Shown here: piece by piece, positions 2,907 through 64,000 of the stretch | Layout: every line of letters starts with the position of its first letter | How positions within the stretch are numbered: position 1 is the first letter of the stretch | IMG/VR virus record: IMGVR_UViG_3300001102_000006 | From: a virus | DNA: 64,000 nt | Direction: 5' to 3' (one strand) | Notes under the pieces: generated by a model | Databases searched by the model: none | Told to the model about the DNA's origin: nothing | What the model saw: only the letters and a program-made list of their open reading frames with translations | Program-made: the position numbers and the translations under genes

Positions 2907-4055
2907 TTAGTCGGAACGCTCGCCCCAGCCGTAGTCAACTACAACAGGGAATCGAGGCATACCATCTGGGGTTGGAGTAAAAAATCTTACTGTTGCCCAG
3001 TCCGGCGTGTTTCCGCTCTCAAAAAGCTCTTTGAGTTTTTCTTGTGTTCCGCGAACGCCTGCACCACACTCACGACCGTCCGGCAGTGCAAAGATAAAGC
3101 GCTTGACCATGCCAGCCCAGTTGCCGTTGCCTTCTTCTGTCCGAAGAACGTGGAATTCTTCGGACAAGAACTCCTTGCGTTTGAGTAGAGTTTTCGACCG
3201 CTTGTGTTCGTAACCGACATTGGGTAAGCGGATCATCTGACCTTCATAGCCTTCTTTGATCCACTCGGCGTACCACGTGTCGATCTGGTCGAAAGTTTCC
3301 GTGTACACGAAGTCCACAGTAATGACCATACTGTCTTTCCAGTCGGCCCAGCCAAATTCTTCGCCAAGCTTTCCAAGAATACACTGACGTTCGTAGGCGG
3401 TGGCTTCGTCCACGATGTCATAAACGTGATATTGAATCAGTCGTGCAGCTTTTTCAACATCTTCGGGTTTTGGTTTTGCTTTCCGGACCACAGATGTGAT
3501 CGTGTTGAAATCTTCGCGCAGTTCGTGATTGTAAAGCTCACCGTCGAGGATCAAATCGGGGTACAGATCGAATGCAGGACGCAGGGCATCAAAGATGTGG
3601 TCGCACGAAATGATCGGCTTGCCGGTGCGTGTCCAAAGGCCATCTGCGCGGGCAATGCAGCGAATGCCGTCAAGCTTAGGCTGCAAAACAACACCATCGC
3701 TGACGGAAACTTTTGTCTTTACCTTTTCCCAATCAGTCGCCAACATGGGCTTTGTGAAAGGAACATTGTCGATCTCGTTGATGTCCTCAAAACATCCTCG
3801 ATCTTTCTTTCGAACGTATAGTGCGGCAATTTCTGCGCGCGCTTGTTCTTCGGCGGTCGTGGCGTTGGCGCGACCGACATTCTTGGGTTCACAAAACGAC
3901 CAGCCGGATTCGACTTTCTTGCCATCTGTGATGCCAGACACGACTCGGTGCGCAAACACGTCACCGTCTTGCCCAAGCTGCATGGACCATTGACGGACTT
4001 CTCCGCCCACGCCTCGTTTGTAAAGCGGATCGTAGCTTTCGATCACCTGCATCAC
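2907..4055 (-). CDS. lig: ATP-dependent DNA ligase
   Basis: Motif I QPKLDGIRC, ILDGELY, YHVYD, EGYEGQMIR, KRSKTLLKRK, C-terminal OB fold ending MPRFP. Confidence 0.93.
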   Translation of the reverse strand: MMQVIESYDPLYKRGVGGEVRQWSMQLGQDGDVFAHRVVSGITDGKKVESGWSFCEPKNVGRANATTAEEQARAEIAALYVRKKDRGCFEDINEIDNVPFTKPMLATDWEKVKTKVSVSDGVVLQPKLDGIRCIARADGLWTRTGKPIISCDHIFDALRPAFDLYPDLILDGELYNHELREDFNTITSVVRKAKPKPEDVEKAARLIQYHVYDIVDEATAYERQCILGKLGEEFGWADWKDSMVITVDFVYTETFDQIDTWYAEWIKEGYEGQMIRLPNVGYEHKRSKTLLKRKEFLSEEFHVLRTEEGNGNWAGMVKRFIFALPDGRECGAGVRGTQEKLKELFESGNTPDWATVRFFTPTPDGMPRFPVVVDYGWGERSD

Positions 4056-4701: not shown

Positions 4702-6099
4702 TTAGATTGCTGCCCGTTGACGGATGGTTTCAAAGTCGTCATCCACCTTGAGTACGCCGTCCAGATAGACGGTTCGCAACTGGTCCGCAATCCCGTGACC
4801 CATATTGGTAGGGATGTCGTCAATCCGGCGCGGAACGTACTCGCCGTCGATCAGCAATACAGCCTGACGGCCTCGCTTGGACTTCTTGCCTTGGTCGGTA
4901 ATCGGGTCTTTGTAGACATCCAACCAAACGCCATCGACTTCGACCGCATTGGCCTTCATGGCGTACTTGCAAGTGTCTCGATCAACTTTTTGAAGAAGAC
5001 CGCCGCCCATGCCCATGGCAAAGTTTGAGATAGAGATTTTGCGCTCCATCGCATTCATGCACAGGCGGGTCAGCGTTTCGACAGTCATGCCGTCGCCTTG
5101 AATGACACGGACTTGATCCGGCAAAACCTTGTAGCCTTTTGAGTTCACGGTGTAGCCAAATTGCTCCATCAGGATATCGATGATGTCCAGTGGCATTGTA
5201 GTGGGATCACCACTGTCCGGACGAACGACCAGCGCCCCTTCCCGTGCCAGCACAACATCTTTGAGTTCCTTGCCCCAGTATTCGCGGGTGGCCTTGAATA
5301 CGTTGTAGCTGTCGGACACGCAGGCGACAAGTCCTGTTGGATGCTTTTCGAGCAAGTTGCGGAACATGTCAAGCTCGCCGTCACGTCCCCAAGAAGTCAC
5401 AGTGCTGTGTTCCGTTGCAGGGATCGAGAAGCCTACAGGACCATCCGCATTGTAGTAGGACATAGCCCCAATCAATGCTTCAACCGTGTCGGTGCCCATG
5501 AAGTTGACAAGGTGCCCCAGTCCGCCCAGCATGGCGGCTTCGGAACAGGTCGCGCCGCGCGCGCCAAAGTCGTGAAGCTTAAATCCAATTTCTGCATCAG
5601 GATCATCGGCTGTCATCGCCAGACCGGCATAGATCACTTTCTTTGCCTTTCGGCTCAGCGATGCAACGGTAGAAGGGTACCAAACGGCGCGCAGCATTGC
5701 GGTCTCAACATAAGAAGTCAACCACGGGAAACGTGGGTCCGTGTTCACCACCTGCACTTGCGGAATTCCCGGCTGCGTGACGGTGCCTTCGGGCAGTGCC
5801 TTGATCTCGATAGGAAGCTTGCCGTTGGGCAGGCTGGCGATCTGCATCCAACCTTCGTAGTTGAATGGCATCCCGTGTGCTTCAAACAGCTTGCTTGCCG
5901 CCTGAACATCTTCGTGCGTGACCGGCGTCATCAGGTATTCTTTGATGAATGCTTGCAGTCCGAAGAAAACGACCTCATCAAATTCGCCGCCACGCGGCTC
6001 GATGTAGGACGAAACGCGTGTCGCGCCTTCGGGGTATTGCAGGAAGTGTGAAGCTTTGTAGCTGTCGGTACGGGTGATTGGGGTAAGTAGCTTGTGCAT
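4702..6099 (-). CDS. nadV: Nicotinamide phosphoribosyltransferase (NAMPT)
   Basis: TDSYKASH, LHDFGARG, SIPATEHS, CVSDSY, VRPDSGDP, IQGDG, GMGGGLLQ motifs; start moved to MHKLL after the AGGAG RBS. Confidence 0.95.
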   Translation of the reverse strand: MHKLLTPITRTDSYKASHFLQYPEGATRVSSYIEPRGGEFDEVVFFGLQAFIKEYLMTPVTHEDVQAASKLFEAHGMPFNYEGWMQIASLPNGKLPIEIKALPEGTVTQPGIPQVQVVNTDPRFPWLTSYVETAMLRAVWYPSTVASLSRKAKKVIYAGLAMTADDPDAEIGFKLHDFGARGATCSEAAMLGGLGHLVNFMGTDTVEALIGAMSYYNADGPVGFSIPATEHSTVTSWGRDGELDMFRNLLEKHPTGLVACVSDSYNVFKATREYWGKELKDVVLAREGALVVRPDSGDPTTMPLDIIDILMEQFGYTVNSKGYKVLPDQVRVIQGDGMTVETLTRLCMNAMERKISISNFAMGMGGGLLQKVDRDTCKYAMKANAVEVDGVWLDVYKDPITDQGKKSKRGRQAVLLIDGEYVPRRIDDIPTNMGHGIADQLRTVYLDGVLKVDDDFETIRQRAAI

Positions 6100-6146
6100 G
6101 AGAAAACTCCTTTCTCGGTTGTTGTCGCAGGGTCTATCCCTTTGAC

Positions 6147-7166
6147 TTAGATGCCCACCATCGTCTCGATGATGTCGTAGTGATCTTCGAACATAGCGTC
6201 CCGGCGAAGATTTGCAATGGGAACCCATTGCGCCTTTTCGGCGTCGTCCGAACCTTTGATCTTTGGCAATTCTTCTGTCTGCCGAAGCTCAAATTTGTAG
6301 GCGGTGGTAATTGTTCGCCCGCGCTGTGATCGGAAGGGGTCTTCAAAAACACGCCAAGAGCGTATGGAACCCTGCAAGACTTTATCCGGAACAGAGATGC
6401 GCGTTTCTTCGCGAAGCTCTCGAACCGCCGCTTCTCGCGAAGTTTCATATTCGTTGACGAACCCACCCGGAATAGCCCAAAGACCTTTCCCCGGCATAGC
6501 GCCACGTTTCACAAGAAGAATATGACCGGCCTGAACAACAACCGCGTCAGCGGTGAAGAAGGTGGGGGCATACGGAGCAACGGACCACTGCTTTTTGTAG
6601 TCTTGAATGAAATCGTGCTCTGCACAAACCTCTTTGTAGGCGTCCGTGTACCGCCAGTCACGCATAAACGCCTCAACTTCGACCGGTAGTCCGCGCGGCA
6701 TCCCGTTTGGATTGAAATATTCCCGGCGGATATCGGTCGCGTTCAGGTTGTCAAAATTGATGACTTCTTCGTGCTCCCACGTAGGGAAGGCTTTCAGGTA
6801 GAAGCTGGATGCATCTTTCGAATGCCCAATCAATCCAGTGCGAACTGGGTCAGGCGTGAACGGCGTGTTCGCCACGGTCATCGCACTCGACTGGACCCCG
6901 CCAATCCAGCGGTCCATGTTGTATGTGTGATCCACTTGGGGACAGAAGTGCAGACGACCTTGTTCCACCTCGTTCGGATAGACGCGGCTGATCATGTCGA
7001 TGCGTTCTTGCGTGGTAAACGGGTTTCGGGCACTGCGCGGCTGTTGGTCACTGCCTATCACAAGCGCGACTTTTCGTGCGCGTTGCAAAGCCGTATCCAC
7101 AACAAATTTGTGTCCCAAATGAAAAGGCTGGAATCGCCCAATAAAAGTCAAAACGTCATAATTCAT
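6147..7166 (-). CDS. nadM: Bifunctional NMN adenylyltransferase / ADP-ribose Nudix hydrolase (NadM-Nudix)
   Basis: IGRFQPFHLGH (HxGH), RNPFT, NATDIR and Nudix box PGGFVNEYETSREAAVRELREET. Confidence 0.95.
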   Translation of the reverse strand: MNYDVLTFIGRFQPFHLGHKFVVDTALQRARKVALVIGSDQQPRSARNPFTTQERIDMISRVYPNEVEQGRLHFCPQVDHTYNMDRWIGGVQSSAMTVANTPFTPDPVRTGLIGHSKDASSFYLKAFPTWEHEEVINFDNLNATDIRREYFNPNGMPRGLPVEVEAFMRDWRYTDAYKEVCAEHDFIQDYKKQWSVAPYAPTFFTADAVVVQAGHILLVKRGAMPGKGLWAIPGGFVNEYETSREAAVRELREETRISVPDKVLQGSIRSWRVFEDPFRSQRGRTITTAYKFELRQTEELPKIKGSDDAEKAQWVPIANLRRDAMFEDHYDIIETMVGI

Positions 7167-7768: not shown

Positions 7769-8266
7769 TTACGCCATGTCAAGCGTAAAAATACTACATG
7801 GTTTACTGTTTTTTGTAACAGACACAACTTCTCCCCCTGTTCCGTCATCCAGATCAATGGCAGCACGAACGGCGTTTATGGGAGTCGCACCTGCGTGCAT
7901 AGCTCCCAAGGCAAAGCGTGCGCCGCTACCTATGGCTTCGAATTCTTTCCCCCATAGGGGTGATCCGTTACCATCCGCCGCGAAATACCAAAGCGGGCCT
8001 TTTCCATCATTTGGGGCAAGCAAAACAGTAATGCCCGAACTACCCGCGTCAAACTCCGGCGGTTCTTTGTAGAATTCATGCAAGGGTGTGTCGCCTTTAC
8101 CCAAAATCCAATCATACATAGGATGAGCAAACGGATACGCACCCGAAAAACCCATCATAAATCGATCAGTCTTGGCAAGCTTGGGGACACCGTAATTGAT
8201 GTCCCCAGACCATGAACCCATGGTGTCCGCCGCCATGACCCCATCGCGGTATGCAATTGTCGTCAT
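7769..8266 (-). CDS. HslV/proteasome-beta-like Ntn peptidase
   Basis: N-terminal MTTIAYRDGVMAAD, AIGSGARFALGAM, AAIDLDDGTGG. Confidence 0.8.
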   Translation of the reverse strand: MTTIAYRDGVMAADTMGSWSGDINYGVPKLAKTDRFMMGFSGAYPFAHPMYDWILGKGDTPLHEFYKEPPEFDAGSSGITVLLAPNDGKGPLWYFAADGNGSPLWGKEFEAIGSGARFALGAMHAGATPINAVRAAIDLDDGTGGEVVSVTKNSKPCSIFTLDMA

Positions 8267-8748
8267 GTGTTGAGCACCCGAATTTCGTTCCAGCCTTCGC
8301 CCAGCATAGGTTCTACCATGGAAGATTTCATCGATTCATCGATATGCGGTGGAATGACTTTGCCGGGACGTTGACGAAGACGCTGTTGACGCACGTCCTC
8401 ATCACACTGAACGACAATCAAAACCGTATAGTACGACGCTGGAATTTGTGTCAGAACACCCCGACGCTTTTTGCGAGTCAGGTTGGTTTGATCCCAAACA
8501 ATCGAGGTCTTGTCTTTCAACGCCTGCCGGAAAGCACTATTGACAGTGCCCGTGGCATCTTTGATCGCGTCAGGAAACGCCTCGGAATAGGTGATGCCTT
8601 TCCAGCGCGCAACGTCTTCGATCAAGTCATCCGTCGAAAGCTGGATGAAGCTAGAGGGGACAGACTGCCGAAAGGTGGACTTCCCGGAACCGGGAAGACC
8701 CATGAGCATGACAAAAATCGGGCCATTGTGTTTGATGGTATCGATCAT
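8263..8748 (-). CDS. P-loop kinase (polynucleotide kinase-like, AAA_33)
   Basis: GLPGSGKST, LSTD, VWDQTNLTRKKR; directly downstream of the RNA ligase. Confidence 0.85.
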   Translation of the reverse strand: MIDTIKHNGPIFVMLMGLPGSGKSTFRQSVPSSFIQLSTDDLIEDVARWKGITYSEAFPDAIKDATGTVNSAFRQALKDKTSIVWDQTNLTRKKRRGVLTQIPASYYTVLIVVQCDEDVRQQRLRQRPGKVIPPHIDESMKSSMVEPMLGEGWNEIRVLNT

Positions 8749-10007
8749 TCAAAGTCTCCTTTCTCTTTCCAAGCAGTCTCAAAGTTATTGAGATTTGCCG
8801 CCATAGCCACATTTTCTTTCATCTCCTGCCACTTGGTTTCAGAGACCAAGCCGCCGGTAATGACACGATCCGCCGCTTCCGAAGCGTCTGCAATTTTGCC
8901 GTCCCACATGGAGAAAACAAGAGAAGCTTCGAGACGGGTCATCGACTTGGCCCCCTGCGGGCTGATAGCAAACGACTTCTTGTCGTCGTAGCTCAGACGC
9001 GCGTCCTTGTAAAGAGCCGCAATGTCGTCCCGAAGCCGTTCAAAACACCACCAGAACCGCTTGATGTACGCTTCCACGTCCGCGCGGTCTTCCGCAGAGA
9101 CAAGAGGAAGAAGGTCGTCCACCGTGCCTTCACGAATTGCCGTCACCAGAGTCCGCTCCGTGCGGGACGCCTCTTTGACGCGGTGAAGCGTGCTATAGAT
9201 GTCCGTCTTGACCTTGGCGCGGTGACCGTTCTCCCATTGAATCACGATGCCTTCGTCCAAATCATCGCTTTCTTTGACAGCCGACAGGTAAACGGTCGGG
9301 TCGCCCTCGACAGGATCATAGGTGCGCACAGTCGGAATGCCGAACAGTTCCGCTTGGCGGTCAACTTGTTCGGGCGTCAGATACCAACCCTCACGGTTGT
9401 GTCGAATTGCCAAAAGAACCATGTCTTCGGCATATTCCGCCACAATGCGGTTGAACGGACCAACGTATTCAAACATTGGCGTCCAACCGTGTGAGATACA
9501 GAATTCTGCGAAGCCAACGTAGTCACGTTTGTCCCCGGCAACAAAGTCTTCGGCCCACATTGCCGTGTCCGTGATTCCCATCTTGGTTCCCCAGCGAATG
9601 CCCGCAGGGGTTGGCAAAGGGCGCACCATGGAGCCATCCAATTTGTCGAGGACCCAGTGACGTGCAGAGAAGTCCAGAACGCCTACGTCCATGTCTTCGC
9701 GTTCTCCCACATTGAAGAATTTGTGGAAGGGGCGAGACACAATGGCACCAGTTTCAGTGTCGAATGCAATTCCTCGGCACTCCCGGCGCACGGCGGCGCG
9801 CTGCCACTGAGACCGTGCATAAGCAATGTCCCACGGGTCATCGGATTTTGGGGCAGGAAAGGCAGGAAAAGTGTCATTGCCCATCTTGACATAGTTCACA
9901 AAGGTGTGCCCGCTGTCCTTCTCGACAACCCGGAAACAATCGGCGTCCACATGCACGCGAACATCGTCAAGGTGCTCAATGCGCGGAAATGAATAAGTGA
10001 CAGACAT
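8745..10007 (-). CDS. T4 Rnl1-like RNA ligase
   Basis: RECRGIAF, PFHKFFN, motif I DKLDGSM, TPMFEY, DEGIVI, KVK. Confidence 0.9.
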   Translation of the reverse strand: MSVTYSFPRIEHLDDVRVHVDADCFRVVEKDSGHTFVNYVKMGNDTFPAFPAPKSDDPWDIAYARSQWQRAAVRRECRGIAFDTETGAIVSRPFHKFFNVGEREDMDVGVLDFSARHWVLDKLDGSMVRPLPTPAGIRWGTKMGITDTAMWAEDFVAGDKRDYVGFAEFCISHGWTPMFEYVGPFNRIVAEYAEDMVLLAIRHNREGWYLTPEQVDRQAELFGIPTVRTYDPVEGDPTVYLSAVKESDDLDEGIVIQWENGHRAKVKTDIYSTLHRVKEASRTERTLVTAIREGTVDDLLPLVSAEDRADVEAYIKRFWWCFERLRDDIAALYKDARLSYDDKKSFAISPQGAKSMTRLEASLVFSMWDGKIADASEAADRVITGGLVSETKWQEMKENVAMAANLNNFETAWKEKGDFE

Positions 10008-10110
10008 GGGTTCCTCCTTTGTTAGTTGATTCTTGATACCTTGTTAGAACTGATTCGTCAACAAGAAAGGCCCGGAAAAACCGGGCCTTTGTTATCTTGT
10101 GCATACCGCG

Positions 10111-13925: not shown

Positions 13926-15074
13926 TCAGGCATTCACAACCATTTCCAAAAGATCGTCTTTCTCGGCTGTAAGGCCAGTTTCGATCCATATTTCTTTTGC
14001 ATCTTGCAGCGCTTTACCCATTTCTGGGCCGGGTTCAAAACCAAGCTGCATTAGATCGGCTGCCCGCACCGGGAATTGTGCATTCTCGCCACGCGCCGCT
14101 TCTCCGTGGCTCCATCCACCACAGCTTATTCTCAGCGCGTGTGCATCTTTTGCCACAAGCTTCCCATAAAGGTGCGTAGATACAGCAATTGGGTACTGCA
14201 TGTCAAGTGCTTCTGCAATTTTATCGAGATGTTTCTGCTCATTGTTTGCGTGAGGAAACGGAATTGCATTGCCGTGCAAGGCGTAAAAACGCCGTGTCCA
14301 GCTTGCGGAAAAAAGATTTGTCCGTTCTGCCATTTGCACAGCAAAGAAAGCTTTCATGTCGGCGTTAGGCAGAATTTCTTGCAGAACACCTAAACGGTTC
14401 ATTTCTGCAATAGCTTGAAATGGCTCAGGCAGATCAAGAATCTTTTTCAATTCAGACCAAACACGCTCTCCGCTGACAACCGTTGGCAGAGCGTACTTGT
14501 GCTTCCACGCCGCGTTAGCGGCGTCTGGGTGAAGCTCATCGATTCCGTATTTGGCGTGAAACCGAAACAAACGCATGATGCGAAGATAATCTTCACGGCA
14601 ACGCTGTTCGGCGTCCCCTACAAAACGTACTACGCCCTCCACGATATCATCAACACCTGTACCGGTGGGATCGTAAACGTTGCCACCTCGATCCATGTAC
14701 AGCGCGTTCATGGTGAAGTCTCGGCGCTGGGCGTCTTCTTCCATTGTCTTCGCAAACTCTACCGTGGCACGGCGTCCATCTGTGGCGACATCATAACGAT
14801 AGGTCGTCACTTCAAAAGTCTGATCACCTTTGCAAATTGTGATCGTGCCATGATCAATTCCCGTAGGATACGTCTTGAACCCGAACCACTTGAACATCTG
14901 CAAAAGCTTGTGTGGCGGAGCGTCCGTCGCAATGTCAATATCATTGCAGGGTACTTCCGCAATGGCATCTCGAACACAACCTCCAACCGCATAGGCTTCA
15001 AAGTTATGTTGTTCAAGAACCATGCAAGCTTCTTGAAACTCAGGCAGGGACAGCCATGGCGGAGAGAATTTCAT
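13926..15074 (-). CDS. cca: CCA-adding enzyme / class II tRNA nucleotidyltransferase
   Basis: VGGCVRD, DIDIAT, EVTTYR, RRDFTMNAL, EDYLRIMRLFRF, SGERVWSEL. Confidence 0.92.
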   Translation of the reverse strand: MKFSPPWLSLPEFQEACMVLEQHNFEAYAVGGCVRDAIAEVPCNDIDIATDAPPHKLLQMFKWFGFKTYPTGIDHGTITICKGDQTFEVTTYRYDVATDGRRATVEFAKTMEEDAQRRDFTMNALYMDRGGNVYDPTGTGVDDIVEGVVRFVGDAEQRCREDYLRIMRLFRFHAKYGIDELHPDAANAAWKHKYALPTVVSGERVWSELKKILDLPEPFQAIAEMNRLGVLQEILPNADMKAFFAVQMAERTNLFSASWTRRFYALHGNAIPFPHANNEQKHLDKIAEALDMQYPIAVSTHLYGKLVAKDAHALRISCGGWSHGEAARGENAQFPVRAADLMQLGFEPGPEMGKALQDAKEIWIETGLTAEKDDLLEMVVNA

Positions 15075-15466
15075 ATTGTTTTCCCTGTAACCAGTGCGTC
15101 AAGAAAATCAACAACGAGTTGATTGATCGTCGGCGCGCGTTCAGGCAATTGAGAAAGACCAGTTCCCAAGCCATCTGCCGGGATGATCAGTAGACGCCCG
15201 CGTGAGCGGGCATCGAATGCCTTGAGAAAGTCTTCTGTGATGATGGGTGAAATGCGTTCGAGATCATCATCCGAAAAGAAAGACGTTTCACGATTGTCCG
15301 GTGCCCACTTTGTAGCGATGCCGATTGCATTGGGTTCGCCGCGCATTGCGGCTGCTTGTCCGCCCATACCTTTACGGCGCACGTTGTCCCCAAACAGAAA
15401 CACTGCGTTCGGGTTGTTGCGCAGGTCGTCGCGCTCAATCCATTTCTGTGTGTAAATTTTCACCAT
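15071..15466 (-). CDS. Conserved phage protein (FLFGDN...GMGGQA family)
   Basis: FLFGDN, GGQAAAMRGEPNAIGIATK, DGLGTGLSQL motifs. Confidence 0.65.
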   Translation of the reverse strand: MVKIYTQKWIERDDLRNNPNAVFLFGDNVRRKGMGGQAAAMRGEPNAIGIATKWAPDNRETSFFSDDDLERISPIITEDFLKAFDARSRGRLLIIPADGLGTGLSQLPERAPTINQLVVDFLDALVTGKTI

Positions 15467-15575
15467 ATCATTGCTCCCACCACAACACCGGCACCAAACA
15501 CAAGTGCAAGGGCGGCAAAAACATACGGAGCGACGGGACCCATTGCCATGAGCATAAGACGGACGTAATCAAACA

Positions 15576-16277
15576 TCATGATGCTTTATTTTCCTCCATC
15601 CATTTAGTCGTTGCAGTGTTGATCAGGTCGAACAGGTCGTTCGGACGCTGGCGAGAATCACCTTGCACGACATTGATTTCTTCGCAGGTCAGGCCAAGCG
15701 GTGCCCAGACTTCATCGTTGTGCCCTACTGTGAGATTTGGAGTCCCGTAAAGAGCAGACTTGCGTGTCCATTCTTCCAGCTTGAAGGCGAGACGTGCTTT
15801 CGGTGTGTTGGCTTTGCCTTCTGCCCGAACATGCCCACGCATCATCGCACAGAAGACGAGGATGTCCCCGCACTTGTCACGCCATTCCGCAGTCTTGCGT
15901 TTGCCACGTTCCTGCATTCCAATGAGATCGGCCTGCCTCTTGATGATGTCACCGGCGACAGCAGCCGCATACGACATACTGCGCATGGCATCTTCGATAT
16001 CAAGTTCTTCGCGGTGCGTGTGAGGCTCACGCAGCGTGTACATTCTGCCCCAGTTCCGGCGATTCAAGGCGAAGTCGATGACCATATCGCCATCACAGTC
16101 GCGCTGATACTTCGCCTCAAGGATGTCTGCGAACACTTCTGAAAGCTCCCGCAGATCATCGTCTGTCACAGGAGGCCAACTGGCGTCCTGTTCCAGAATA
16201 GGATTCTCAAGGAAGGCTTTGACTTTGGTAACAACCGCGTCCGCAGTTGGGCCTTCGTAATTCAGTGGCTCGGGCAT
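15576..16277 (-). CDS. Hypothetical protein
   Basis: AGGAG RBS and its own promoter. Confidence 0.65.
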   Translation of the reverse strand: MPEPLNYEGPTADAVVTKVKAFLENPILEQDASWPPVTDDDLRELSEVFADILEAKYQRDCDGDMVIDFALNRRNWGRMYTLREPHTHREELDIEDAMRSMSYAAAVAGDIIKRQADLIGMQERGKRKTAEWRDKCGDILVFCAMMRGHVRAEGKANTPKARLAFKLEEWTRKSALYGTPNLTVGHNDEVWAPLGLTCEEINVVQGDSRQRPNDLFDLINTATTKWMEENKAS

Positions 16278-16439
16278 GTGGGTCTCCTTCTGTGGGTTTC
16301 CCTACAGATACGAGTTCACCAACGATTCGTCAAGCCCAAAAGGAGAAGTTCTGGATGGTCATAATAGATCGAATGCGGCACTGTGATGAGGCCAATAGAC
16401 GCCGCCACGACAATCAGATAGCTAACAATCACACGCATA

Positions 16440-17042
16440 TCAGACCTCCAAGTCAAGGTAACTGTTGATACCAAGGCACACAAATCGCGTACCATTGACC
16501 ACACGGTCCACATCCTCGTGCCAGTGCCCGAAGACCCATGTCTCAGGCTGATGCCGCTGGAACATGCCTTCCAGCGCCTCTGCGGTGCGTGTCTTGTACT
16601 GCTTCTTGCTGGTGCCTGCGATAAAGAAATCTAACGCCACAGACGTGGGGCAGTCATGCGTCACGACAGTTTTTGGTTTGTGATAGACCATGAGTTCGTG
16701 CATGCGTACTAACTCAGAAGTGGAAAGTTCTTCGTCGTACCACCAGTTCAAACCGGGTGTTCGGATGCTGTGATCGATTGACCAAGCCCCGCCAATGTAG
16801 AGGATGCCGCGCTCATCGTAAGTGCCGTCCTCAATATATCCGACACGCTCTTTGCAACGTCCCGGATCGTCGTGATTGCCACGAATGAATTTATGTTGCC
16901 CGTCTTTGTGCAACTCGTCCACAAACTCGTCATCTCGGATGAAACCGATTCCAAAGTCCCCTACCTGCACGCTTTCTGTTGCCCCTGCAATCAAAGGCAT
17001 GTAGCTATATAGGTCTCCGTGAATATCACCGATCAGTCGCAT
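16440..17042 (-). CDS. Calcineurin-like metallophosphoesterase
   Basis: GDIHG, VGDFG, RGNHD, VTHDCP, FGHWH. Confidence 0.92.
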   Translation of the reverse strand: MRLIGDIHGDLYSYMPLIAGATESVQVGDFGIGFIRDDEFVDELHKDGQHKFIRGNHDDPGRCKERVGYIEDGTYDERGILYIGGAWSIDHSIRTPGLNWWYDEELSTSELVRMHELMVYHKPKTVVTHDCPTSVALDFFIAGTSKKQYKTRTAEALEGMFQRHQPETWVFGHWHEDVDRVVNGTRFVCLGINSYLDLEV

Positions 17043-17068
17043 TTGTCACATTTCTTTTGTGGGGCTAA

Positions 17069-17575
17069 TCACTTAGCCCGATTGAGTATCTTGCGCAATG
17101 CTTCGGCGTTTCCGCGCGCATCATCCAAGGCGTTGTGGGTGTGTTTGGTGTCACGCAGGCGCTTCCACTTAGAAGCTGCCCCGACCTTGCCCTCAAGACC
17201 GGCGTAAAAATCACCAATGCGGCGCATGCTCCAACCCATTGGGTTACCGTCTGTGTACAACCACAGGTATCCATTGACAAATTGCCAATCAAAGCCGGGA
17301 TTGTCTGACCAAACCGGAATTCGTTTGCCGCCGTAAGTTTCCCGAAGCCAGCGATTGAAGGCGAGAACACCAACGCGAGGATCAGGATACTTTTGGATCG
17401 TGCTTTCGCTCAATCCGATTGCTTCGAGCGCGCGGGGATCAATGTCCCGACCTTCAAGCGGACGCATTTCCGCGTAAAAATCATTTCCTTCCAGATCGAC
17501 AGCGCCGATCTGGATCATTGAGTGCGTCATGGCGCTTCCGCCAGTAGCCTCTACATCTATAACAAGTCCATTCAT
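17069..17575 (-). CDS. DEDDh 3'-5' exonuclease (Rv2179c-like exoribonuclease)
   Basis: IDVEATG, DNPGFDWQF, HTHNALDDA. Confidence 0.88.
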   Translation of the reverse strand: MNGLVIDVEATGGSAMTHSMIQIGAVDLEGNDFYAEMRPLEGRDIDPRALEAIGLSESTIQKYPDPRVGVLAFNRWLRETYGGKRIPVWSDNPGFDWQFVNGYLWLYTDGNPMGWSMRRIGDFYAGLEGKVGAASKWKRLRDTKHTHNALDDARGNAEALRKILNRAK

Positions 17576-17606
17576 GTGCCCGTCCTATCATGCAGAGATT
17601 GAGATG

Positions 17607-18251
17607 TCAAGCGTAAACCGCTTCATCCTGCGCCTGCGCTGCCAAATGCTCCGCCAACACCCCAGCAAATTGTTCTTTGCTCATTTTGGAATATGCCTTG
17701 CGGACACCGGGCAAGCGCATGGTTTGGACGACAGAAACCTTACGGGGTGCCTCATCGAAAACCTTGCGGACGATACAGGGCAATTGATCGTACGCTTCCA
17801 TTTCAGCCGCTGCAACACGTTTCAAAAGATTAGACATTTGGCACCTCCACTTTGGCAAAATCATTGCGAACAACGTGTTCTTCGTCGGTCACACGAAAAT
17901 TTCGGTTCCTTTTCAGTATGCGCACGAACATGCTTTTTGCTGTGAAGCGCGAAACCACACACAAGCGGGATTCTGCGTTGCGACCTGTTGTGCTGTAAAA
18001 GATGTGATCACCTACGACCACATCCTTCCCGAGAAAGTCTTTCATACTGGTGCGCATCAGACAACCACCCCATTCAAAGCGTTGCGAGCGCACGTCTTAC
18101 CGAAGGGATAGCCACCCAGATCATCGTGGCCTTCCGGGATGTCATCGTGATCCGCGACGTATTTGTCATCGGTATTGTCGTAAACAAGCCAGACCGTCTT
18201 CGTCGGGTCCAGTGTTCGTCCGCAGCAGTGGCAAGTAAGTCTCTCGGTCAT
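17607..18251 (-). CDS. Three small hypothetical ORFs (17607-17840, 17830-18057, 18057-18251)
   Basis: Tightly coupled ORFs with RBS. Confidence 0.55.
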
Positions 18252-18324
18252 GGGTTCCTCCTTGTAGCTTGTCTCTACACTAAGCCACCCATGACCGATT
18301 CGTCAAGACCTTTTTTGCTCTATC

Positions 18325-19137
18325 TTACTTTTCGAATATGAACGCAGTACGATCCTCTAGCCCTGCCCAGTCTACGGCTTGGCGTGTGATTTGTGTACGT
18401 GTGACCAGATCATTGCGTGGTGGGCGGTGGTCAGCGGGGATGGCGGTCCATTCGCGTTCGGTGAGCTTACGTTCTACTGTCTCACGGTAGAAGGTTCGGC
18501 CAAAGCGATCTTCGGGAGACACCACTTGATAGAAGTCCGGACCACCCGCGTCGATGACTGCTGCTATTTGCTCAGCAGAACTCAGTCCCTGCATCTTTTT
18601 GTGGCTCATATGTGATCGAGCGAAAGAAGATACTGCATTCTTTCTGGCGTCGAGAAAACGCCACAAAACAGTGTTTGCTGCTTCCATCTGGCTTGGAACA
18701 TTCCAAACACGGCAATCAAAATGAGGGCATGCGCGCACAGCAAGCGAGCGCGTATTGTCGCTCTGCTTCACAAGCTCGACAGCAAATTTACTGCTGGCCA
18801 TGCCTGCGAGCACACTGCAAAGCTTCTGTGTTCGCCCATCAAAAAGCATCTGTGCCGCCGGGTTTTCTTCCCGATCTACATACCAAACAAGTGTGATTTC
18901 GTCTGATTGCGTGTAGCCGATACTTGCATGGGTCTCACGCACAAGGTGCGCGGTTGTAGCGTCCATTACGGCTGTTACGCGCTTGTCAAACGGCTTCTCA
19001 AAAGGCTTGGTGAACTTGGAGAAAGACCGCCCGTCAATACGTGCAACCACAGGCAGGGTGGTATCCAGCCGCCGATGGGCTTCGACGCCTTCGTATTCTT
19101 TCATGCGGTCGCCTAAATCGTCTTTACTCATCATCAT
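18325..19137 (-). CDS. thg1: tRNA(His) guanylyltransferase-like protein (Thg1/TLP)
   Basis: RIDGRSFSKFT, YTQSDEI, FDGRTQKL, FDCRV, DARKN. Confidence 0.93.
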   Translation of the reverse strand: MMMSKDDLGDRMKEYEGVEAHRRLDTTLPVVARIDGRSFSKFTKPFEKPFDKRVTAVMDATTAHLVRETHASIGYTQSDEITLVWYVDREENPAAQMLFDGRTQKLCSVLAGMASSKFAVELVKQSDNTRSLAVRACPHFDCRVWNVPSQMEAANTVLWRFLDARKNAVSSFARSHMSHKKMQGLSSAEQIAAVIDAGGPDFYQVVSPEDRFGRTFYRETVERKLTEREWTAIPADHRPPRNDLVTRTQITRQAVDWAGLEDRTAFIFEK

Positions 19138-25944: not shown

Positions 25945-26463
25945 TCACTTCCACCAATGTACAGGCCCCGCCTGTATGATTCCACAGGGAAGGTCTTGCC
26001 CACCCATTTCAAACTTGTCCTCGACACGCTCATATGAGGGCCACAGAGACAGGTCAACGTTCTGTTCCTGCACCAGTGCCACAACCGTGCCGCCATGCCT
26101 CAGAAAGCGCTGTGCGTGCTGTATGTGGTCATCTGAGCGCGCAGGTGGGCACATGATCACCGCATCAAACATCGGAAGCTCCGCCGGGACATTCCGCCCA
26201 GCGCCATCAGGTTTCCACGGCTTGATGTCCAAAAAGTTTCTACGATAAGTGCGTTCACAGTCGTGCGCTTGCAACTCGCGATGCAGGTCCGCATTCAATT
26301 CAATCGAAATGACGCGTCGTGTGAATTCGTAGATCACTTTGACCATGCCACCAGAGCCTGCGCTGGGTTCGAGGACACGCATATCGGGGCGGATGCCTGC
26401 CATCTCGCACATCCGGCGCGTCAAGTGTTCAGGTGCCCGCGTAGCGGGGAGCGATCTTGTCAT
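25945..26463 (-). CDS. Class I SAM-dependent methyltransferase
   Basis: VLEPSAGSGG, IELN, NFL, FDAVIMCPP. Confidence 0.75.
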   Translation of the reverse strand: MTRSLPATRAPEHLTRRMCEMAGIRPDMRVLEPSAGSGGMVKVIYEFTRRVISIELNADLHRELQAHDCERTYRRNFLDIKPWKPDGAGRNVPAELPMFDAVIMCPPARSDDHIQHAQRFLRHGGTVVALVQEQNVDLSLWPSYERVEDKFEMGGQDLPCGIIQAGPVHWWK

Positions 26464-27095
26464 GTGAAGACTCCCAATTGCGTGAGAAGTGTAAGCGCCG
26501 AATCCTGCTTTCGCCGCGTCGGTGCAAATGTTCTGCCCAGCGCTGTGTGGAGCGCCACTGCGTGGCGGACCTGTGCCAGTGTGGGAGGCACATCACCTTT
26601 TGCCACATTGCACGGCACGCATGCGGGCATGGTGTTGTTTTCGAGAGAATATCCCTCAGATTTTGGGAAGACGTGATCTCGTGTCGTCTGGCTAAACGGA
26701 ACTTTCTTGCCGCAAAGGTAGCAGCACTTATTATTTCCTACCCAGAGAATGTGGAGATTTAATCGTTTGTTGATCGAGCGCTTCTGCGTGCGTCGAGTCG
26801 TCTTGCCTAGCCCATTGCGAAGTTGCTTGGCATGCTCACAGATGCTGATGTAGATCGACTTCGGTATTGGAAATTGAACGGAAGGAAATAATTCCAGTAC
26901 GCCCTCTTTCGACAAATAGAAGTTTGCGGGGCGACCGATTGCAAAGGATGCAATCTCGTCCCAGTTAATGGTCCGCCGGGATAGATTCGAACTACCGACA
27001 CCCCGTGCTTCATAAGAAGGCTCGCTTGCGGCGCTATTGTCAGTCGTGCTTTGTACTCCGACCATGGTACCAGAACTAGCTAAGGACGTTCCCAT
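26460..27095 (-). CDS. HNH endonuclease; its start lies inside the tRNA-Phe insertion
   Basis: CCYLCG, TRDHVFPKSEG, NTMPACVPCNVAKG; GGAGG RBS 8 nt before the ATG at 27095. Confidence 0.8.
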   Translation of the reverse strand: MGTSLASSGTMVGVQSTTDNSAASEPSYEARGVGSSNLSRRTINWDEIASFAIGRPANFYLSKEGVLELFPSVQFPIPKSIYISICEHAKQLRNGLGKTTRRTQKRSINKRLNLHILWVGNNKCCYLCGKKVPFSQTTRDHVFPKSEGYSLENNTMPACVPCNVAKGDVPPTLAQVRHAVALHTALGRTFAPTRRKQDSALTLLTQLGVFT

Positions 27096-27202
27096 GATTG
27101 TTTCCTCCACATTTCTTATCGTTGCGCAGACCCGACGCTAATCAGACCCTTTTTCACAAACTCCATTTCTAACGGGTGCTCTACCAACTGAGCTACCGGC
27201 GG
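26969..27202 (-). tRNA. tRNA-Phe(GAA) interrupted by a 158-nt insertion in the anticodon loop (exons 27202-27171 and 27012-26969)
   Basis: 5' CCGCCGG-TA-GCTC-AGTTGGTA-GAGC-A-CCCGT-T and 3' TGAAGC-ACGGG-GTGTC-GGTAG-TTCGAAT-CTATC-CCGGCGG-A-CCA; 32+44=76 nt with all stems pairing. Confidence 0.88.
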
Positions 27203-27327
27203 ATATAGTAGGTTCACCCTCCGTGACGAACAAGCGCCCTGCCGAGTGTTGCCGTGAACCCTGTCCCAGTGATGGCAACGATCTGGGATGAGACTTACCT
27301 AAACGATGGTAAGTGATTCGTCAAGGG

Positions 27328-27804
27328 CTAAACACCCAAAACCGCAGAAAGTGTCGAAAAGCTTTTCGCATACTTTGCGTTCAGTCGTTCCCGACGCTCT
27401 GCATCCATGCCTGACTTGTCGCCGGACATGTTTGCCATGTTGTCGGCCCACTTCACCTTGATTGCGGCGCGGTTGCCGCTGGAAATGATGCGAAGAATGT
27501 TGCCCTCGTAGGTCAGTGAACGATCTTTTGTGAGCAGGCCAACAATTTCCGCCACGCTGTCACCAAACTGATCCGCAATGTCTTGCAAGGTGAATGGCGT
27601 GTCTTCGACAACATCGTGCAGCAGTGCCGCAATGATCTCATCTTCGGTCGCGTGGTTTGCGAACGGACCATTTGCCACCGTCTCCGCAACTTCCAGCGGG
27701 TGCGTGTAGTATGGGCGTGCGCCGTAACGCTGCTCACGGTGCGCGACAACACAGAATTCAAAAGCTTCGGCTACCCGTGGAATGCGTAAGAAAAGCTGCA
27801 TCAT
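27328..27804 (-). CDS. HD-domain RelA/SpoT-type (small alarmone) hydrolase
   Basis: H.EQRY...PYYTHPLEVA, AALLHDVVEDT, VKWADNMANM. Confidence 0.85.
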   Translation of the reverse strand: MMQLFLRIPRVAEAFEFCVVAHREQRYGARPYYTHPLEVAETVANGPFANHATEDEIIAALLHDVVEDTPFTLQDIADQFGDSVAEIVGLLTKDRSLTYEGNILRIISSGNRAAIKVKWADNMANMSGDKSGMDAERRERLNAKYAKSFSTLSAVLGV

Positions 27805-29656: not shown

Positions 29657-30295
29657 TTAATGCATGTATAACGACGATTCGTCAATACCATTCTTGTGAA
29701 TTTCTCCGTGCATCCAATGTGTGTCAGTCTGGACGTGATTGGGTCGCACAAACTTCGCAACACTCACGCCGAAGTCATCATAGTAAAATTCGTCTGCAAC
29801 ACGAACAACAAAACCCTCGTGCCCTTCTTCGTGTAGTGCCGCAATTTTAACCGGGTCCCACTGTCCATTATATAGAACCGGAACCGTGTCCATGTTCAGT
29901 CTAATGCACCAACCACGTGTATCTTTCCACGACAAACACACATTGTCAGGGTTCCACACAGAAATGAGCGGCAGATACGTGGATAGTTGCGTATAGGCGA
30001 TTGAATGTTGCGCATACAGATTCTCTGCGCAAACTCGATAGCCATTTTGAAGGAGATAAGAACGGCGTGTCCAATAGTTCTTGGCCCAATCTCGTGTCCA
30101 ATGCGTTCGCCCGTCTATGCTCCGGGCGTGCGTGCCGCCGTCAGAGTATCCCGTGAAGTTCTCGCCGTCCATTTTTCGTGTGACAACAACGCGTTTGCCG
30201 TCGAAATGTGACGTATCTTTTAGCACACGATCATCGTTCGTAGCTCCGGGGGAGGACGGCAAGTGTGGTGTGCGGGGATATTTATGTCGTTGCAT
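29657..30295 (-). CDS. Second RNA ligase (small Rnl2-like family)
   Basis: KYPRTPHLPSSPG, VTRKMDGEN, HARS, CAENLYAQHSI, HEGFVVR, AKFVR. Confidence 0.85.
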   Translation of the reverse strand: MQRHKYPRTPHLPSSPGATNDDRVLKDTSHFDGKRVVVTRKMDGENFTGYSDGGTHARSIDGRTHWTRDWAKNYWTRRSYLLQNGYRVCAENLYAQHSIAYTQLSTYLPLISVWNPDNVCLSWKDTRGWCIRLNMDTVPVLYNGQWDPVKIAALHEEGHEGFVVRVADEFYYDDFGVSVAKFVRPNHVQTDTHWMHGEIHKNGIDESSLYMH

Positions 30296-53556: not shown

Positions 53557-53636
53557 GTTTCCAACGTTTGAACGGATTCCTGCGACCCTCGCGTCCCCTA
53601 CTTGATGCTGTCGGCATCTTTCCTGACCTCACATAT
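53525..53636 (-). ncRNA. Repeated small RNA, copy C (convergent on B)
   Basis: TTGCGA-17-TAAGGT promoter, TGTGAGGTCAGGAAAG, GATGC-CGACA-GCATC hairpin, AAGTAGGGGACG; 3' end uncertain. Confidence 0.55.
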
Positions 53637-53770
53637 ACCTTAGCCGCGCGTTGCGTGATTCGCAAGAGAAAAAAATTTCGTTTGACCTGTTTTTTGTGTT
53701 GCGAATCGTTCGGGAATATGGGAAAACAGAATCACGGAAACACAAACAGACACCTAGAGAGGTTCACACA

Positions 53771-54679
53771 ATGACTTATAATCGTTACATGAAGGGCATG
53801 AGCAACGGCGGCAACATCTTTTGGGATGGCGCAACCCCGCTTGGCAATGATGAATTGCAGCGCGCCGTGCCGTCGCTTTTCGCCACCGAGGCCCACGAGT
53901 CGCGTTCTGACCGTTTCGTGCCTATCCCTACCGTCAACGTTCTGGACGGCTTGCGCGCCGCTGACTTTATGCCCGTGATGGCACAACAGGCCCGCACGCG
54001 CATTCCCGGCAAGGCCGCTTATACGCGCCACATGATCCGCATGCGCCACCGTTCGCTGACCAATACCGCCGGGGAAGCGTTCGAGGTTATCTTGACCAAC
54101 GCCAATGACGGCACCGCCGCCTATAAGATGATTGCGGGCATTTTCCGCTTTGTCTGCACCAATGGGCTGTTTACCGGGGAAGCGTTTGACACGGTATCCG
54201 TTCGCCACGCTGGCAAGTCTGTCATTGATGACGTTCGCGATGGCGCGGTGAATATGCTTGACATGGCCCCCCGCGTGCTGGACTCGGTTGAACAATTCAA
54301 GGGAATCACCCTTGACCGTGATGAGGCCCTGACCTTTGCAGAGGCCGCGCACCGCGTGCGCTTTGCCAACGCATATGAGGCTGACCCGGAAAACCCCGAC
54401 GCCTTGCCCACGTTGAACCCTAACGCCTGCCCCGTGCAACCGCTGGACCTTTTGCGGGCACGTCGCACCGCTGACAAGACTCCGACGCTGTGGAGCGCGT
54501 TCAATATCGTGCAGGAAAACACCGTGCGCGGCGGGCAGCGGGGAATCATCCAAGGCACCAACGGCAAGGCACGCCGCGCCAAGGTGCGGGAAGTCAAGGG
54601 CATTGCGCAAACCACGGCACTGAATCAAGCCCTTTGGGACCTGACCGAAAAGATGGCGGATATCAAATGCGCCGCCTAA
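53771..54679 (+). CDS. DUF932 family protein
   Basis: SRSDRFVPIPT, YTRHMIRMR, LTNANDGTAAYKMIAGIFRFVCTNGL, TLWSAFNIVQEN, LNQALW. Confidence 0.88.
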   Translation: MTYNRYMKGMSNGGNIFWDGATPLGNDELQRAVPSLFATEAHESRSDRFVPIPTVNVLDGLRAADFMPVMAQQARTRIPGKAAYTRHMIRMRHRSLTNTAGEAFEVILTNANDGTAAYKMIAGIFRFVCTNGLFTGEAFDTVSVRHAGKSVIDDVRDGAVNMLDMAPRVLDSVEQFKGITLDRDEALTFAEAAHRVRFANAYEADPENPDALPTLNPNACPVQPLDLLRARRTADKTPTLWSAFNIVQENTVRGGQRGIIQGTNGKARRAKVREVKGIAQTTALNQALWDLTEKMADIKCAA

Positions 54680-61478: not shown

Positions 61479-61554
61479 GTGTCTGTGGTGATGCTGGTGC
61501 CCACATCGGATTGAAGTCCCGAAGATGAAGGTTCGATTCCTTCCGGACACACCA
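61479..61554 (+). tRNA. tRNA-Phe(GAA) with G37
   Basis: GTGTCTG/CGGACAC acceptor, TTGAAGT loop, GGTTCGATTCC, ACCA. Confidence 0.85.
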
Positions 61555-63558: not shown

Positions 63559-63596
63559 ATAGCCATTGACATGGGCGACCAAGTTGCCTATGTCTC

Positions 63597-63968
63597 ACCT
63601 TACACACGTTCATCTGCAAAGCGGATGCATTTCTGGACCGGGGGGCAGTACCCCGCGCCTCCACCATAATAGCGTCAGTCTGACGAGACGTTCTGAGAAG
63701 GTTTGTTGGGAAGTCATGCCCTGATGGATTGGAGAACAGACGCTATTTTGATGGGGGCGATATAGGATCGACAGGATGAATAAGTAGAGTGGCGTGTCGG
63801 CGTAGCCTCACCGTTATCGGGGACAGGACGAAAGTCTGAACTTTACAAATGCAATCGACATGAATGCACTTGTTGCTTCCGCTGCAAACGATGACTTCGC
63901 GCCTCGCGAAGTTGCAATCGCAGCCTAAGCACTTGGGGTCCGGAGGTACCTAGCAACAGAAACCTCCA
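63597..63968 (+). ncRNA. ssrA: Circularly permuted two-piece tmRNA
   Basis: Acceptor piece ending CGCCTCCACCA (63666) precedes coding piece starting GGGGGCGATATAGGATCGAC (63753); G3:U70 pair; tag ...ANDDFAPREVAIAA-stop; outer ends approximate. Confidence 0.92.
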
Positions 63969-64000
63969 ACCTACCCACTTACCTACAAACATACTAAAGG

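Follow-up and report, generated by a model that had tools for sequence, protein, structure and literature searches.

This analysis concerns a split transfer RNA (tRNA) gene for phenylalanine, together with the HNH endonuclease and methyltransferase genes associated with it, in a 64,000-nucleotide stretch of viral DNA (IMG/VR record IMGVR_UViG_3300001102_000006) which is referred to throughout as the window. Coordinates are those of the window unless another record is named, and L-numbers (L002, L003, L004 and so on) denote contigs of relatives fetched for comparison. The core of the locus is composed of the following elements:

27202-27171, minus strand: tRNA-Phe 5' half (5' strand of the acceptor stem, D arm, 5' strand of the anticodon stem, U32)
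27170-27013, minus strand: insert of 158 nucleotides in the anticodon loop, between nucleotides 32 and 33
27108-27104, minus strand: ribosome-binding site GGAGG, inside the insert
27095-27093, minus strand: HNH start codon ATG, inside the insert
27012-26969, minus strand: tRNA-Phe 3' half (Y33, GAA, G37, C38, 3' strand of the anticodon stem, GUGUC variable loop, T arm, 3' strand of the acceptor stem, A73, CCA)
26460-27095, minus strand: HNH endonuclease frame, 211 amino acids from ATG 27095, with TGA at 26462-26460
about 26723-26592, minus strand: HNH motif, Pfam HNH_5/HNH at residues 130-173 (216-residue numbering)
25945-26463, minus strand: small S-adenosylmethionine-dependent methyltransferase-like gene, 172 amino acids, with LEPSAGSGG and CPP/NPP motifs

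Read directly, the 5' half is CCGCCGG-TA-GCTC-AGTTGGTA-GAGC-A-CCCGT-T (27202-27171, minus strand) and the 3' half is TGAAGC-ACGGG-GTGTC-GGTAG-TTCGAAT-CTATC-CCGGCGG-A-CCA (27012-26969, minus strand). Together they form a 76-nucleotide tRNA-Phe(GAA) cloverleaf with stems of 7/4/5/5 base pairs, so that the split gene proposed in an earlier note on this DNA was confirmed by its anatomy. The Phe identity marks (GAA anticodon, A73 and 3' CCA) are present, and a GUGUC-type variable loop and a bacterial D arm are also kept. Both halves were joined to annotated phage tRNA-Phe genes by blastn. ARAGORN and the Rfam tRNA model both listed five other tRNAs of the window and the transfer-messenger RNA (tmRNA), which Rfam placed at 63562-63970 only, and both missed the split gene; standard tRNA finders and phage annotations overlook such genes. 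Joining the halves at 32|33 gives the loop U-Y-GAA-G-C and joining them one base earlier gives A-Y-GAA-G-C, the sequence alone being compatible with either. The anticodon is supplied by the 3' half. The U33 of the earlier note stood for the window, L002, L005, L012 and L013, which have T, and fell for L004 and L006/L007, which have C; in the HNH frame, position 33 falls on the third base of a codon, where this change is synonymous.

A search with the HNH-frame protein returned five homologues (91, 84, 61, 57 and 49% identity) and a hidden Markov model search returned two more at about 30%. The tRNA 3' half was encoded within the N-terminus (..SYEARG.G.S....RT..) of every homologue but one (L003), and each homologue with a 3' half also possessed a matching 5' half 155-158 nucleotides away. 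All 21 cloverleaf pairs were formed in each of six distinct sequences from metagenomic phages (126/126 cells); in a control with the 3' partners slid by 1-3 columns, 34-48% were paired. The decay that the earlier note would have read from a loss of this pairing in homologues was not borne out. Compensatory changes on both sides were found at five pairs, spread over the acceptor, anticodon and T stems:

acceptor stem 4:69: C-G, G-C, A-U
acceptor stem 5:68: C-G, A-U
anticodon stem 28:42: C-G, A-U, G-C
T stem 50:64: G.U, U.G
T stem 52:62: A-U, G-C

Identity among the relatives was 82-90% in the exons, 52-67% in the insert and down to about 30% in HNH. Because the exon substitutions give non-conservative amino-acid changes in the overlapping frame (V>D, S>G, L>P), the constraint acts on the RNA. 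Exons, insert, HNH and the downstream gene diverge in step. GAA, a purine at 37, A73 and the encoded CCA are kept in all four phage groups, including copies free of reading-frame constraint, and the comparison indicates that the cloverleaf is under purifying selection.

The earlier note had suggested a search of related phages for the same tRNA with and without the insert. Insert-bearing relatives were found, but a joined, intron-less tRNA-Phe of this type was absent from the viral contigs of IMG/VR (exact pattern) and from the contigs of four DNA runs. The polymorphism observed was that of the whole tRNA-plus-methyltransferase block, both parts of which are lacking in L003, rather than presence or absence of the intron alone. 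Exact patterns of the 5' half, the 3' junction and the joined tRNA gave 0 matches in IMG/VR, and the HNH profile revealed no additional tRNA-bearing loci in IMG/VR and in the data of the Joint Genome Institute. The 120+25 IMG/VR loci found with a loose 5'-half pattern were ordinary tRNAs, none of which was recovered by nhmmer with a profile of the element. The contigs of two more distant HNH relatives (P0009 and P0011) were too short to inform. A 281-nucleotide seawater contig (run X5, record 5) matched the 5' half only (27172-27203) and then continued as a different sequence starting AAGGAG..ATG; it may be another insert variant.

The insert was 155-158 nucleotides long in all HNH-linked relatives. 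Its consensus fold (RNAalifold, with pair counts alongside) is an irregular rod on top of the anticodon stem, which includes:

27161-27155/27030-27024 (+10..+16/-18..-12), minus strand: closing helix of 7-8 base pairs, 42/42 cells paired, 4 compensatory pairs
about 27147-27130, minus strand: side hairpin (RNAalifold and pair counts)
27097-27092/27067-27062, minus strand: helix enclosing the HNH ATG, conserved (pair counts)

The sequence of the closing helix differs from lineage to lineage (GUUUGUG/CGCAAGC, GAUUGCG/CGCAAUC, GGAUACGU/ACGUAUCC, GUUAGUG/CGCUAAC). Several unpaired blocks are invariant (ACGAUAG, GUGGNGGAAAC, AGUACAAA, GACAAUA and CUUCUUA), and are accounted for in part by the ribosome-binding site and the overlapping frame. 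The folding energy of the insert was unremarkable (z +2.3 vs shuffled sequence). An invariant CUUC (27019-27016) is able to pair with the anticodon plus G37; this CUUC/GAAG pairing was not used as evidence, since the 4-mer is expected by chance in 44% of shuffles. The earlier note had also pointed to GAA at both ends of the insert. It is there in the window, where the insert begins AGAAA, but it is not conserved, the insert of L012 beginning AGAUUU, and therefore it does not represent a target-site duplication.

Rfam searches at E<=10 covered 1.2 kb (window) and 0.56 kb. No family, including the group I, group II and ribozyme families, was found at gathering score or E<=10 at the locus (26300-27500), nor was there an Intron_gpI match at E<=10 on the split tRNA copies of the Caulobacter phage CcrColossus, which are described below. 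U (rarely C) at -1 together with G at omega is found in 98.5% of 5292 tRNA introns (Williams 2020, bioRxiv 10.1101/2020.01.27.920355). This pair was absent at all 8 possible anticodon-loop junctions of the window gene: inserts of the window type offer U(-1) without omega-G, and those of the CbK type (see below) offer omega-G with G(-1). A P3-P7 pseudoknot is absent from the rod-like consensus fold. Marks of group II introns were likewise missing, as the insert starts AGAAA rather than GUGYG, is 158 nucleotides long vs >400 and has no Rfam group II match. There is also no bulge-helix-bulge (3-4-3) motif in the consensus fold; the insert leaves the tRNA as a helix with a one-sided 3' bulge, at 32/33 and not at 37/38. 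On all of these classes the earlier note had come to the same view.

Other assignments were also considered. An alternative pairing (G30:Y33, U31:A-1, U32.U-2, A+1:U-3), for which no covariation was available, would give the window-type insert an RNase III-type stagger of 2 nucleotides, but the same construction on CbK-type inserts gives 1 nucleotide, and the idea was set aside because the insert types disagree. The full D and anticodon arms, and a frame with its own ribosome-binding site running past the 3' end, speak against a tmRNA-like hybrid. A hammerhead was dropped, because CUGAUUAG in the window hairpin departs from the core by one base and is not preserved in L012 or L013. A permuted group I core made from leader and insert was dropped as L012 and L013 have no leader. 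Finally, a weak YrlA match in CcrColossus covered the 3' half of the first copy and the 5' half of the second, whose acceptor strands are not complementary, and reflects tRNA likeness only.

The frame that begins in the insert exceeds Pfam thresholds for HNH nucleases (PF14279, 34.2 bits against a cut-off of 27.5; PF01844, 28.3 bits against 21.4; HNH_5, 2.4e-8) and also matches PHROG HNH families. The earlier observation that GGAGG and the ATG at 27095 lie in the insert, with a frame leading through the 3' exon into an HNH nuclease, was thereby upheld, and the arrangement is conserved in relatives. The tRNA 3' half corresponds to codons 29-42 from ATG 27095 (residues 34-47 in the 216-residue numbering). 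The protein is conserved from W50 onward, also in the tRNA-free homologue L003, and from the CCA end to W50 the window frame contains no ATG, GTG or TTG codon. All available starts (GTG 27110, ATG 27095 and ATG 27065) are in the insert. Because the conserved region has no in-frame start after the tRNA, HNH translation must begin inside the insert. A frame crossing the 3' half from a start in the insert was conserved in all 6 tRNA-bearing relatives, and GTGGAGGAAA..CATG was invariant in the four closest lineages. L012 and L013 have a weaker ribosome-binding site and different called starts, the frame still beginning in the insert. In these two contigs (L012, 155-178; L013, about 2939-2958) the AUG at the start position of the window opens only a mini-frame of 5-7 codons, which is closed by the conserved GAGUAAUUAAC; at this very place a UUG is available to the HNH frame. 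Judged from this arrangement, HNH of L012 and L013 looks as if it used termination-reinitiation coupling instead of direct initiation.

In L003 the gene order is syntenic (HD gene, then HNH) without the tRNA and without the methyltransferase, and HNH starts 1 nucleotide after the HD stop. The nuclease therefore does not need the tRNA. The converse also holds, as split tRNA-Phe genes without HNH were found in CcrColossus, CcrPW, Bajun and RHph_Y1_11, and in view of these two findings the suggestion in the earlier note that the tRNA is a guide or decoy RNA for HNH is not supported. Another of its suggestions, that tRNA maturation would cut the HNH message, gained support: with the start codon in the insert, maturation would do exactly this. 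In the tRNA-bearing phages HNH translation thus evidently depends on the unprocessed precursor.

The constant partner of the split tRNA was not HNH but the small methyltransferase, a gene absent from the earlier note. Its start overlaps the HNH stop (ATGA), and the gene lies after HNH at every tRNA-bearing locus and is absent from L003. The AlphaFold model of the protein (mean predicted local distance difference score 83) best matched the RNA methyltransferases TrmN, ErmE, TrmI, Dim1 and Trm11, though with template modelling scores of no more than 0.56-0.62, and an RNA substrate is plausible. Using tblastn, homologues of the methyltransferase were found in four cultured phages, in each of them just after a split tRNA-Phe. 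Brevundimonas phage Bajun and the Caulobacter phages CcrColossus and CcrPW showed an unannotated gap of about 680 nucleotides before the methyltransferase, with two tandem split tRNAs each; Rhizobium phage RHph_Y1_11 possessed a single one:

L160, about 1414-1952 (JX100810, about 241460-241998): tandem split tRNA-Phe(GAA)-like genes of CcrColossus
L161 (MH588545, about 251190-251740): tandem split tRNA-Phe(GAA)-like genes of CcrPW
L159, 1383-1940 (ON529858, about 53586-54143): tandem split tRNA-Phe(GAA)-like genes of Bajun
L162, 1764-2483 (MN988558, 62183-62902): single split tRNA-Phe of RHph_Y1_11, insert of about 152 nucleotides, junction ..A|CGAAAA..

In the CbK-like copies (those of Bajun, CcrColossus and CcrPW) the inserts are about 200-215 nucleotides long, and the 3' junction (..A|UGAAGA..), T arm, A73 and CCA are shared. 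Over all cultured-phage copies the inserts range from 152 to 215 nucleotides. Homology to the window gene is seen in their exons; between the window type and the CbK type the inserts could not be aligned. CcrColossus and CcrPW differ by one compensatory acceptor pair. None of the copies is accompanied by HNH and all were missed by ARAGORN; the downstream gene is annotated as 'putative rRNA methyltransferase', 'DNA modification methylase' or hypothetical protein. Among 80 IMG/VR relatives of the methyltransferase, a split tRNA was present in the CcrPW copy only.

In RHph_Y1_11 translation of the annotated 'DNA methyltransferase' frame begins a little before the 5' half and passes through the whole split tRNA. 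The protein has an N-terminal extension of about 80 residues, to which the complete split tRNA-Phe (both halves and the insert) is translated. There is no start codon after the CCA in this frame. The 3' half is read in the same frame in RHph_Y1_11 (..GVASSNLASRT..) and in HNH of the window (..GVGSSNLSRRT..), and frame overlap with a split tRNA evidently recurs independently in the RHph_Y1_11 methyltransferase. Since the cultured-phage copies have the methyltransferase but no HNH, the ancestral unit looks to have been promoter, split tRNA-Phe and methyltransferase, with HNH as a later insertion that took over the read-through start.

An HD-domain gene (27828-27328) immediately precedes the split tRNA, and the region between them contains the following elements, the first of which belongs to a family of sites in the window:

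27296-27324, minus strand: promoter-like site of TTGACGAATC type, with TTGACG (27324-27319), a 17-nucleotide spacer and TAGGTA (27301-27296)
10052, 16324, 18297, 25644, 27315, 29676 and 50902, minus strand: TTGACGAATC sites
27203-27290, minus strand: structured leader of about 88 nucleotides between promoter and tRNA, in the window clade only (window, L002, L004, L006/7)

In TTGACGAATC a -35 box is fused to a GANTC site. The window contains 7 copies, always on the minus strand, vs 0.27 expected. Upstream of the split tRNA, TTGACGAATCAC..TAGGT is also found in L002, L004, L006, L012 and L013, and no terminator-like site was seen between the tRNA, HNH and the next gene. The leader helices are interleaved in a double pseudoknot topology (27287-83/27269-65, 27279-74/27253-48 and 27261-54/27217-10), the last of them with 2 compensatory pairs vs L006. 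A variable leader hairpin is swapped for a different one in L002, and the leader is absent from L012 and L013. It is more conserved than the flanking genes, has no Rfam match and proved unrelated to four sRNA paralogues with which it was compared; an 18-mer from it had 2 matches in IMG/VR, both by chance within unrelated genes. TerL of the window phage was 65-69% identical to that of DSS3P8-like roseophages (DSS3P8, vB_RpoS-V10, RpAliso, DSS3_MAL1, MD18 and RcXuper). At the DNA level, no cultured phage was matched by blastn with 2 kb of the locus, and a search at E<=10 gave generic tRNA matches only.

The window also possesses a dense set of tRNA repair and maturation genes:

10007-8745, minus strand: Rnl1-type RNA ligase, overlapping the AAA_33 kinase
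8748-8263, minus strand: AAA_33 (Pnk-like) kinase
8263-10061, 13926-19137 and 29657-30295, minus strand: the repair/maturation gene set

Other members of this repertoire are a metallophosphoesterase, an RNase T-like exonuclease, a CCA-adding/poly(A) polymerase family enzyme, a Thg1-like (3'-5' polymerase) protein and a PF09414 RNA ligase. A copy of TTGACGAATC lies 45 nucleotides upstream of the Rnl1-type ligase gene, and the ligase operon and the split tRNA thus share their promoter type. In phage T4, Pnkp and Rnl1 reseal tRNA broken in the anticodon loop. By analogy the ligase, kinase and phosphoesterase of the window constitute a complete predicted heal-and-seal set for such a break. RtcB is encoded by Bajun, CcrColossus and CcrPW. 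Ligase kit and RtcB are consistent with splicing by cutting and ligation, though not specific to it. The window encodes, in addition, an ATP-dependent DNA ligase (2907-4055) and genes for the salvage of nicotinamide adenine dinucleotide (4702-7166).

A possible explanation for these observations is a functional tRNA-Phe(GAA) gene, split by an intron, which at the same time forms the 5' end of a messenger RNA. Transcription would start at its own TTGACGAATC-type promoter, and the precursor would fold into a full cloverleaf with the rod of about 158 nucleotides emerging between nucleotides 32 and 33. The rod holds the HNH ribosome-binding site and the ATG, the latter within a conserved helix, and the HNH frame runs through the tRNA 3' half into the nuclease, with the small methyltransferase next and translationally coupled. 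Each transcript would then have two exclusive fates: it could be translated unprocessed, or it could be matured to a 76-nucleotide tRNA-Phe by trimming at both ends and excision of the insert, which would destroy the HNH message. The sequence comparison shows the anatomy, selection acting on cloverleaf and insert helices, the lack of known ribozyme signatures and the overlap of frame and tRNA. We infer that the insert is removed, that proteins remove it and that the exact junction is the one proposed here: a host or phage endonuclease would cut it out and an RNA ligase would reseal the anticodon loop, either through the phage kinase, phosphoesterase and Rnl1-type ligase or, in CbK-like phages, through RtcB. 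That the element is a genuine intron removed by endonuclease and ligase, tRNA maturation excluding HNH translation, appears quite possible, although short of probable. In its wider form the proposal is a tentative one: phages of Alphaproteobacteria might own a route of tRNA splicing unknown in Bacteria, in which a tRNA-Phe intron at 32/33 is removed by protein enzymes (an endonuclease with Rnl1/Pnk or RtcB) or by a new small ribozyme and acts as a switch between tRNA and nuclease/methyltransferase message, the methyltransferase acting on the tRNA or its precursor.

A number of observations weigh against splicing by proteins. An intact second tRNA-Phe is present in the window at 61479-61554 (ARAGORN). 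RHph_Y1_11 has C at position 33 and one Bajun copy has A, and such variation is unusual for a decoding tRNA. Conserved single-stranded blocks would not be expected in a passive protein-spliced intron. The tRNA-splicing endonuclease family PF01974 (EndA/Sen) is absent from Bajun, CcrColossus, CcrPW, RHph_Y1_11 and MD18, and this search of cultured phages revealed no endonuclease candidate for removal of the insert. MD18 encodes Rnl1 and the PF09414 ligase and has no split tRNA, which indicates that the ligase kit is not specific, and RHph_Y1_11 has a split tRNA and neither these ligases nor RtcB.

An alternative is that the insert is never removed. The split gene would then provide the HNH/methyltransferase message with a tRNA-like module at its 5' end, or the inserted RNA with a scaffold, and no decoding tRNA-Phe would be made. 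Such a module could serve as a signal for RNase P or 3'-end processing, a stabiliser, a binding site for phenylalanyl-tRNA synthetase or the methyltransferase, or an element of translational control. The downstream frame does start in or upstream of the insert in two unrelated contexts (HNH here, the methyltransferase in RHph_Y1_11), and the ATG is sequestered in a conserved helix; moreover position 33 is not fixed as U, the window already has an intact tRNA-Phe, and neither a splicing enzyme nor a ribozyme was found (Rfam at the locus, PF01974 in cultured phages). Against this, GAA, R37, A73 and the encoded CCA are kept even in CbK-like copies, where no frame covers the tRNA and the methyltransferase has its own start. 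All four canonical tRNA arms are kept, which is beyond the needs of RNase P or a stabiliser, and the tandem duplicates of CcrColossus and Bajun resemble tRNA gene arrays. On balance we find an unspliced module possible but doubtful. A further alternative, a new and compact RNA absent from Rfam that cleaves or splices itself, with a phage or host ligase resealing the tRNA if it cleaves only, is unlikely. Heal-and-seal enzymes or RtcB would accept the 2',3'-cyclic phosphate and 5'-OH ends left by small ribozymes, and conserved length, covarying helices and several invariant unpaired blocks are in keeping with a catalytic RNA; however, the folding energy of the insert does not surpass that of shuffled sequence (z +2.3), the ribosome-binding site and the overlapping frame account for much of what is conserved in it, the window-type and CbK-type inserts cannot be aligned, and no Rfam ribozyme family matches at E<=10.

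A dead tRNA gene disrupted by a selfish insertion, the matching halves being inherited from an intact tRNA-Phe invaded in each lineage, might be suggested by the attached homing-type HNH nuclease and by the second, intact tRNA-Phe of the phage. The pairing of 126/126 cells, the compensatory changes and the constraint at the RNA level make decay with random insertion very unlikely, there being 0/126 mismatched stem cells across lineages in which HNH is about 30% and the inserts about 55% identical. Repeated invasion of fresh intact genes is hardly more attractive, because exons, insert, HNH and methyltransferase diverge together and no intron-less allele was found in viral contigs or the four DNA runs; the HNH-free versions in cultured phages also argue against it. 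Least probable of all, to the point of being extremely unlikely, is a divergent group I intron unseen by the Rfam model. The Rfam Intron_gpI seed was without bacterial sequences at the time of Williams' writing, and a dedicated model gave 20% more tRNA introns (bioRxiv 10.1101/2020.01.27.920355). The CbK-type inserts (about 200-215 nucleotides) would be of the right size, and with the 3' exon taken to begin at A32, 4/5 of them have G as their last nucleotide. To our knowledge, on the other hand, the smallest group I tRNA introns have about 200 nucleotides, and the 158 nucleotides of the window insert fall below this. Nor is there an Rfam match at E<=10 over the 1.2 kb and 0.56 kb searched, a junction with U(-1) and omega-G, or a P3-P7 pseudoknot in the rod-like fold.

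All tRNA introns described in Bacteria and their viruses are group I ribozymes (PMC3984707; bioRxiv 10.1101/2020.01.27.920355), and enzymatic tRNA splicing is regarded as a trait of Archaea and Eukarya. Within the library searched, no paper was found that describes such a split tRNA-Phe, its insert, the frame overlap or the methyltransferase link. As judged from the relatives compared here, selection maintains a split tRNA without group I marks in at least four groups of phages. What is new is the short, RNA-only insert, the frame crossing the 3' exon, the methyltransferase link and the existence of copies in cultured, tractable phages. Splicing of the insert would mean either that repair-type RNA ligases (Rnl1/Pnk, RtcB) act on a housekeeping splicing substrate in phages or that there is a new class of ribozyme. 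A reading frame overlapping the 3' half of a tRNA would also be an unusual switch of gene expression. Cultured phages that infect Caulobacter crescentus, Brevundimonas and Rhizobium carry unannotated copies, which opens the question to bench testing.

Group I introns are known from the anticodon loops of bacterial and phage tRNAs, some of them with homing endonuclease genes; examples are those of cyanobacterial tRNA-Leu(UAA), Azoarcus tRNA-Ile and, with I-Ssp6803I, Synechocystis tRNA-fMet (PMC3984707; bioRxiv 10.1101/2020.01.27.920355). The split tRNA-Phe resembles them in its anticodon-loop insert in a bacterial-type tRNA gene, its association with a homing-type nuclease and its perfect exon cloverleaf. 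It differs in that the insert is a 158-nucleotide rod at 32/33 with no catalytic core recognised by covariance models and no U(-1)/omega-G, and in that the nuclease frame is not nested within the insert but begins there, crosses the 3' exon and continues beyond it.

Protein-spliced tRNA introns of Archaea and Eukarya are removed by the EndA/Sen endonuclease plus the RtcB or Trl1 ligase (PMC4090602, PMC3400036). They share with the present element a ribozyme-free insert in the anticodon loop and a segment able to pair with the anticodon, and the necessary ligase chemistry is present too (kinase, phosphoesterase and Rnl1-type ligase here, RtcB in CbK-like phages). Unlike them, the phage gene has no bulge-helix-bulge, is not interrupted at 37/38, is not accompanied by an EndA-like gene anywhere in the cultured relatives and resides in a bacterial host, and the insert described here is long and of conserved sequence, with a 3' end that codes for protein.

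The closest parallels among phages may be found in T4 and T5. In T4 the anticodon nuclease PrrC is countered by Pnkp and Rnl1, and free-standing homing endonucleases occur in phage tRNA clusters, namely SegB of T4 and the HNH nickases of T5. The window phage likewise has an Rnl1-type ligase beside a polynucleotide-kinase-like gene, and an HNH gene adjoining a phage tRNA gene. The T4 enzymes, however, repair damage and remove no encoded insert, and the endonuclease genes of T4 and T5 lie between tRNA genes and do not overlap one, whereas here the HNH frame runs through the 3' half of the tRNA itself.

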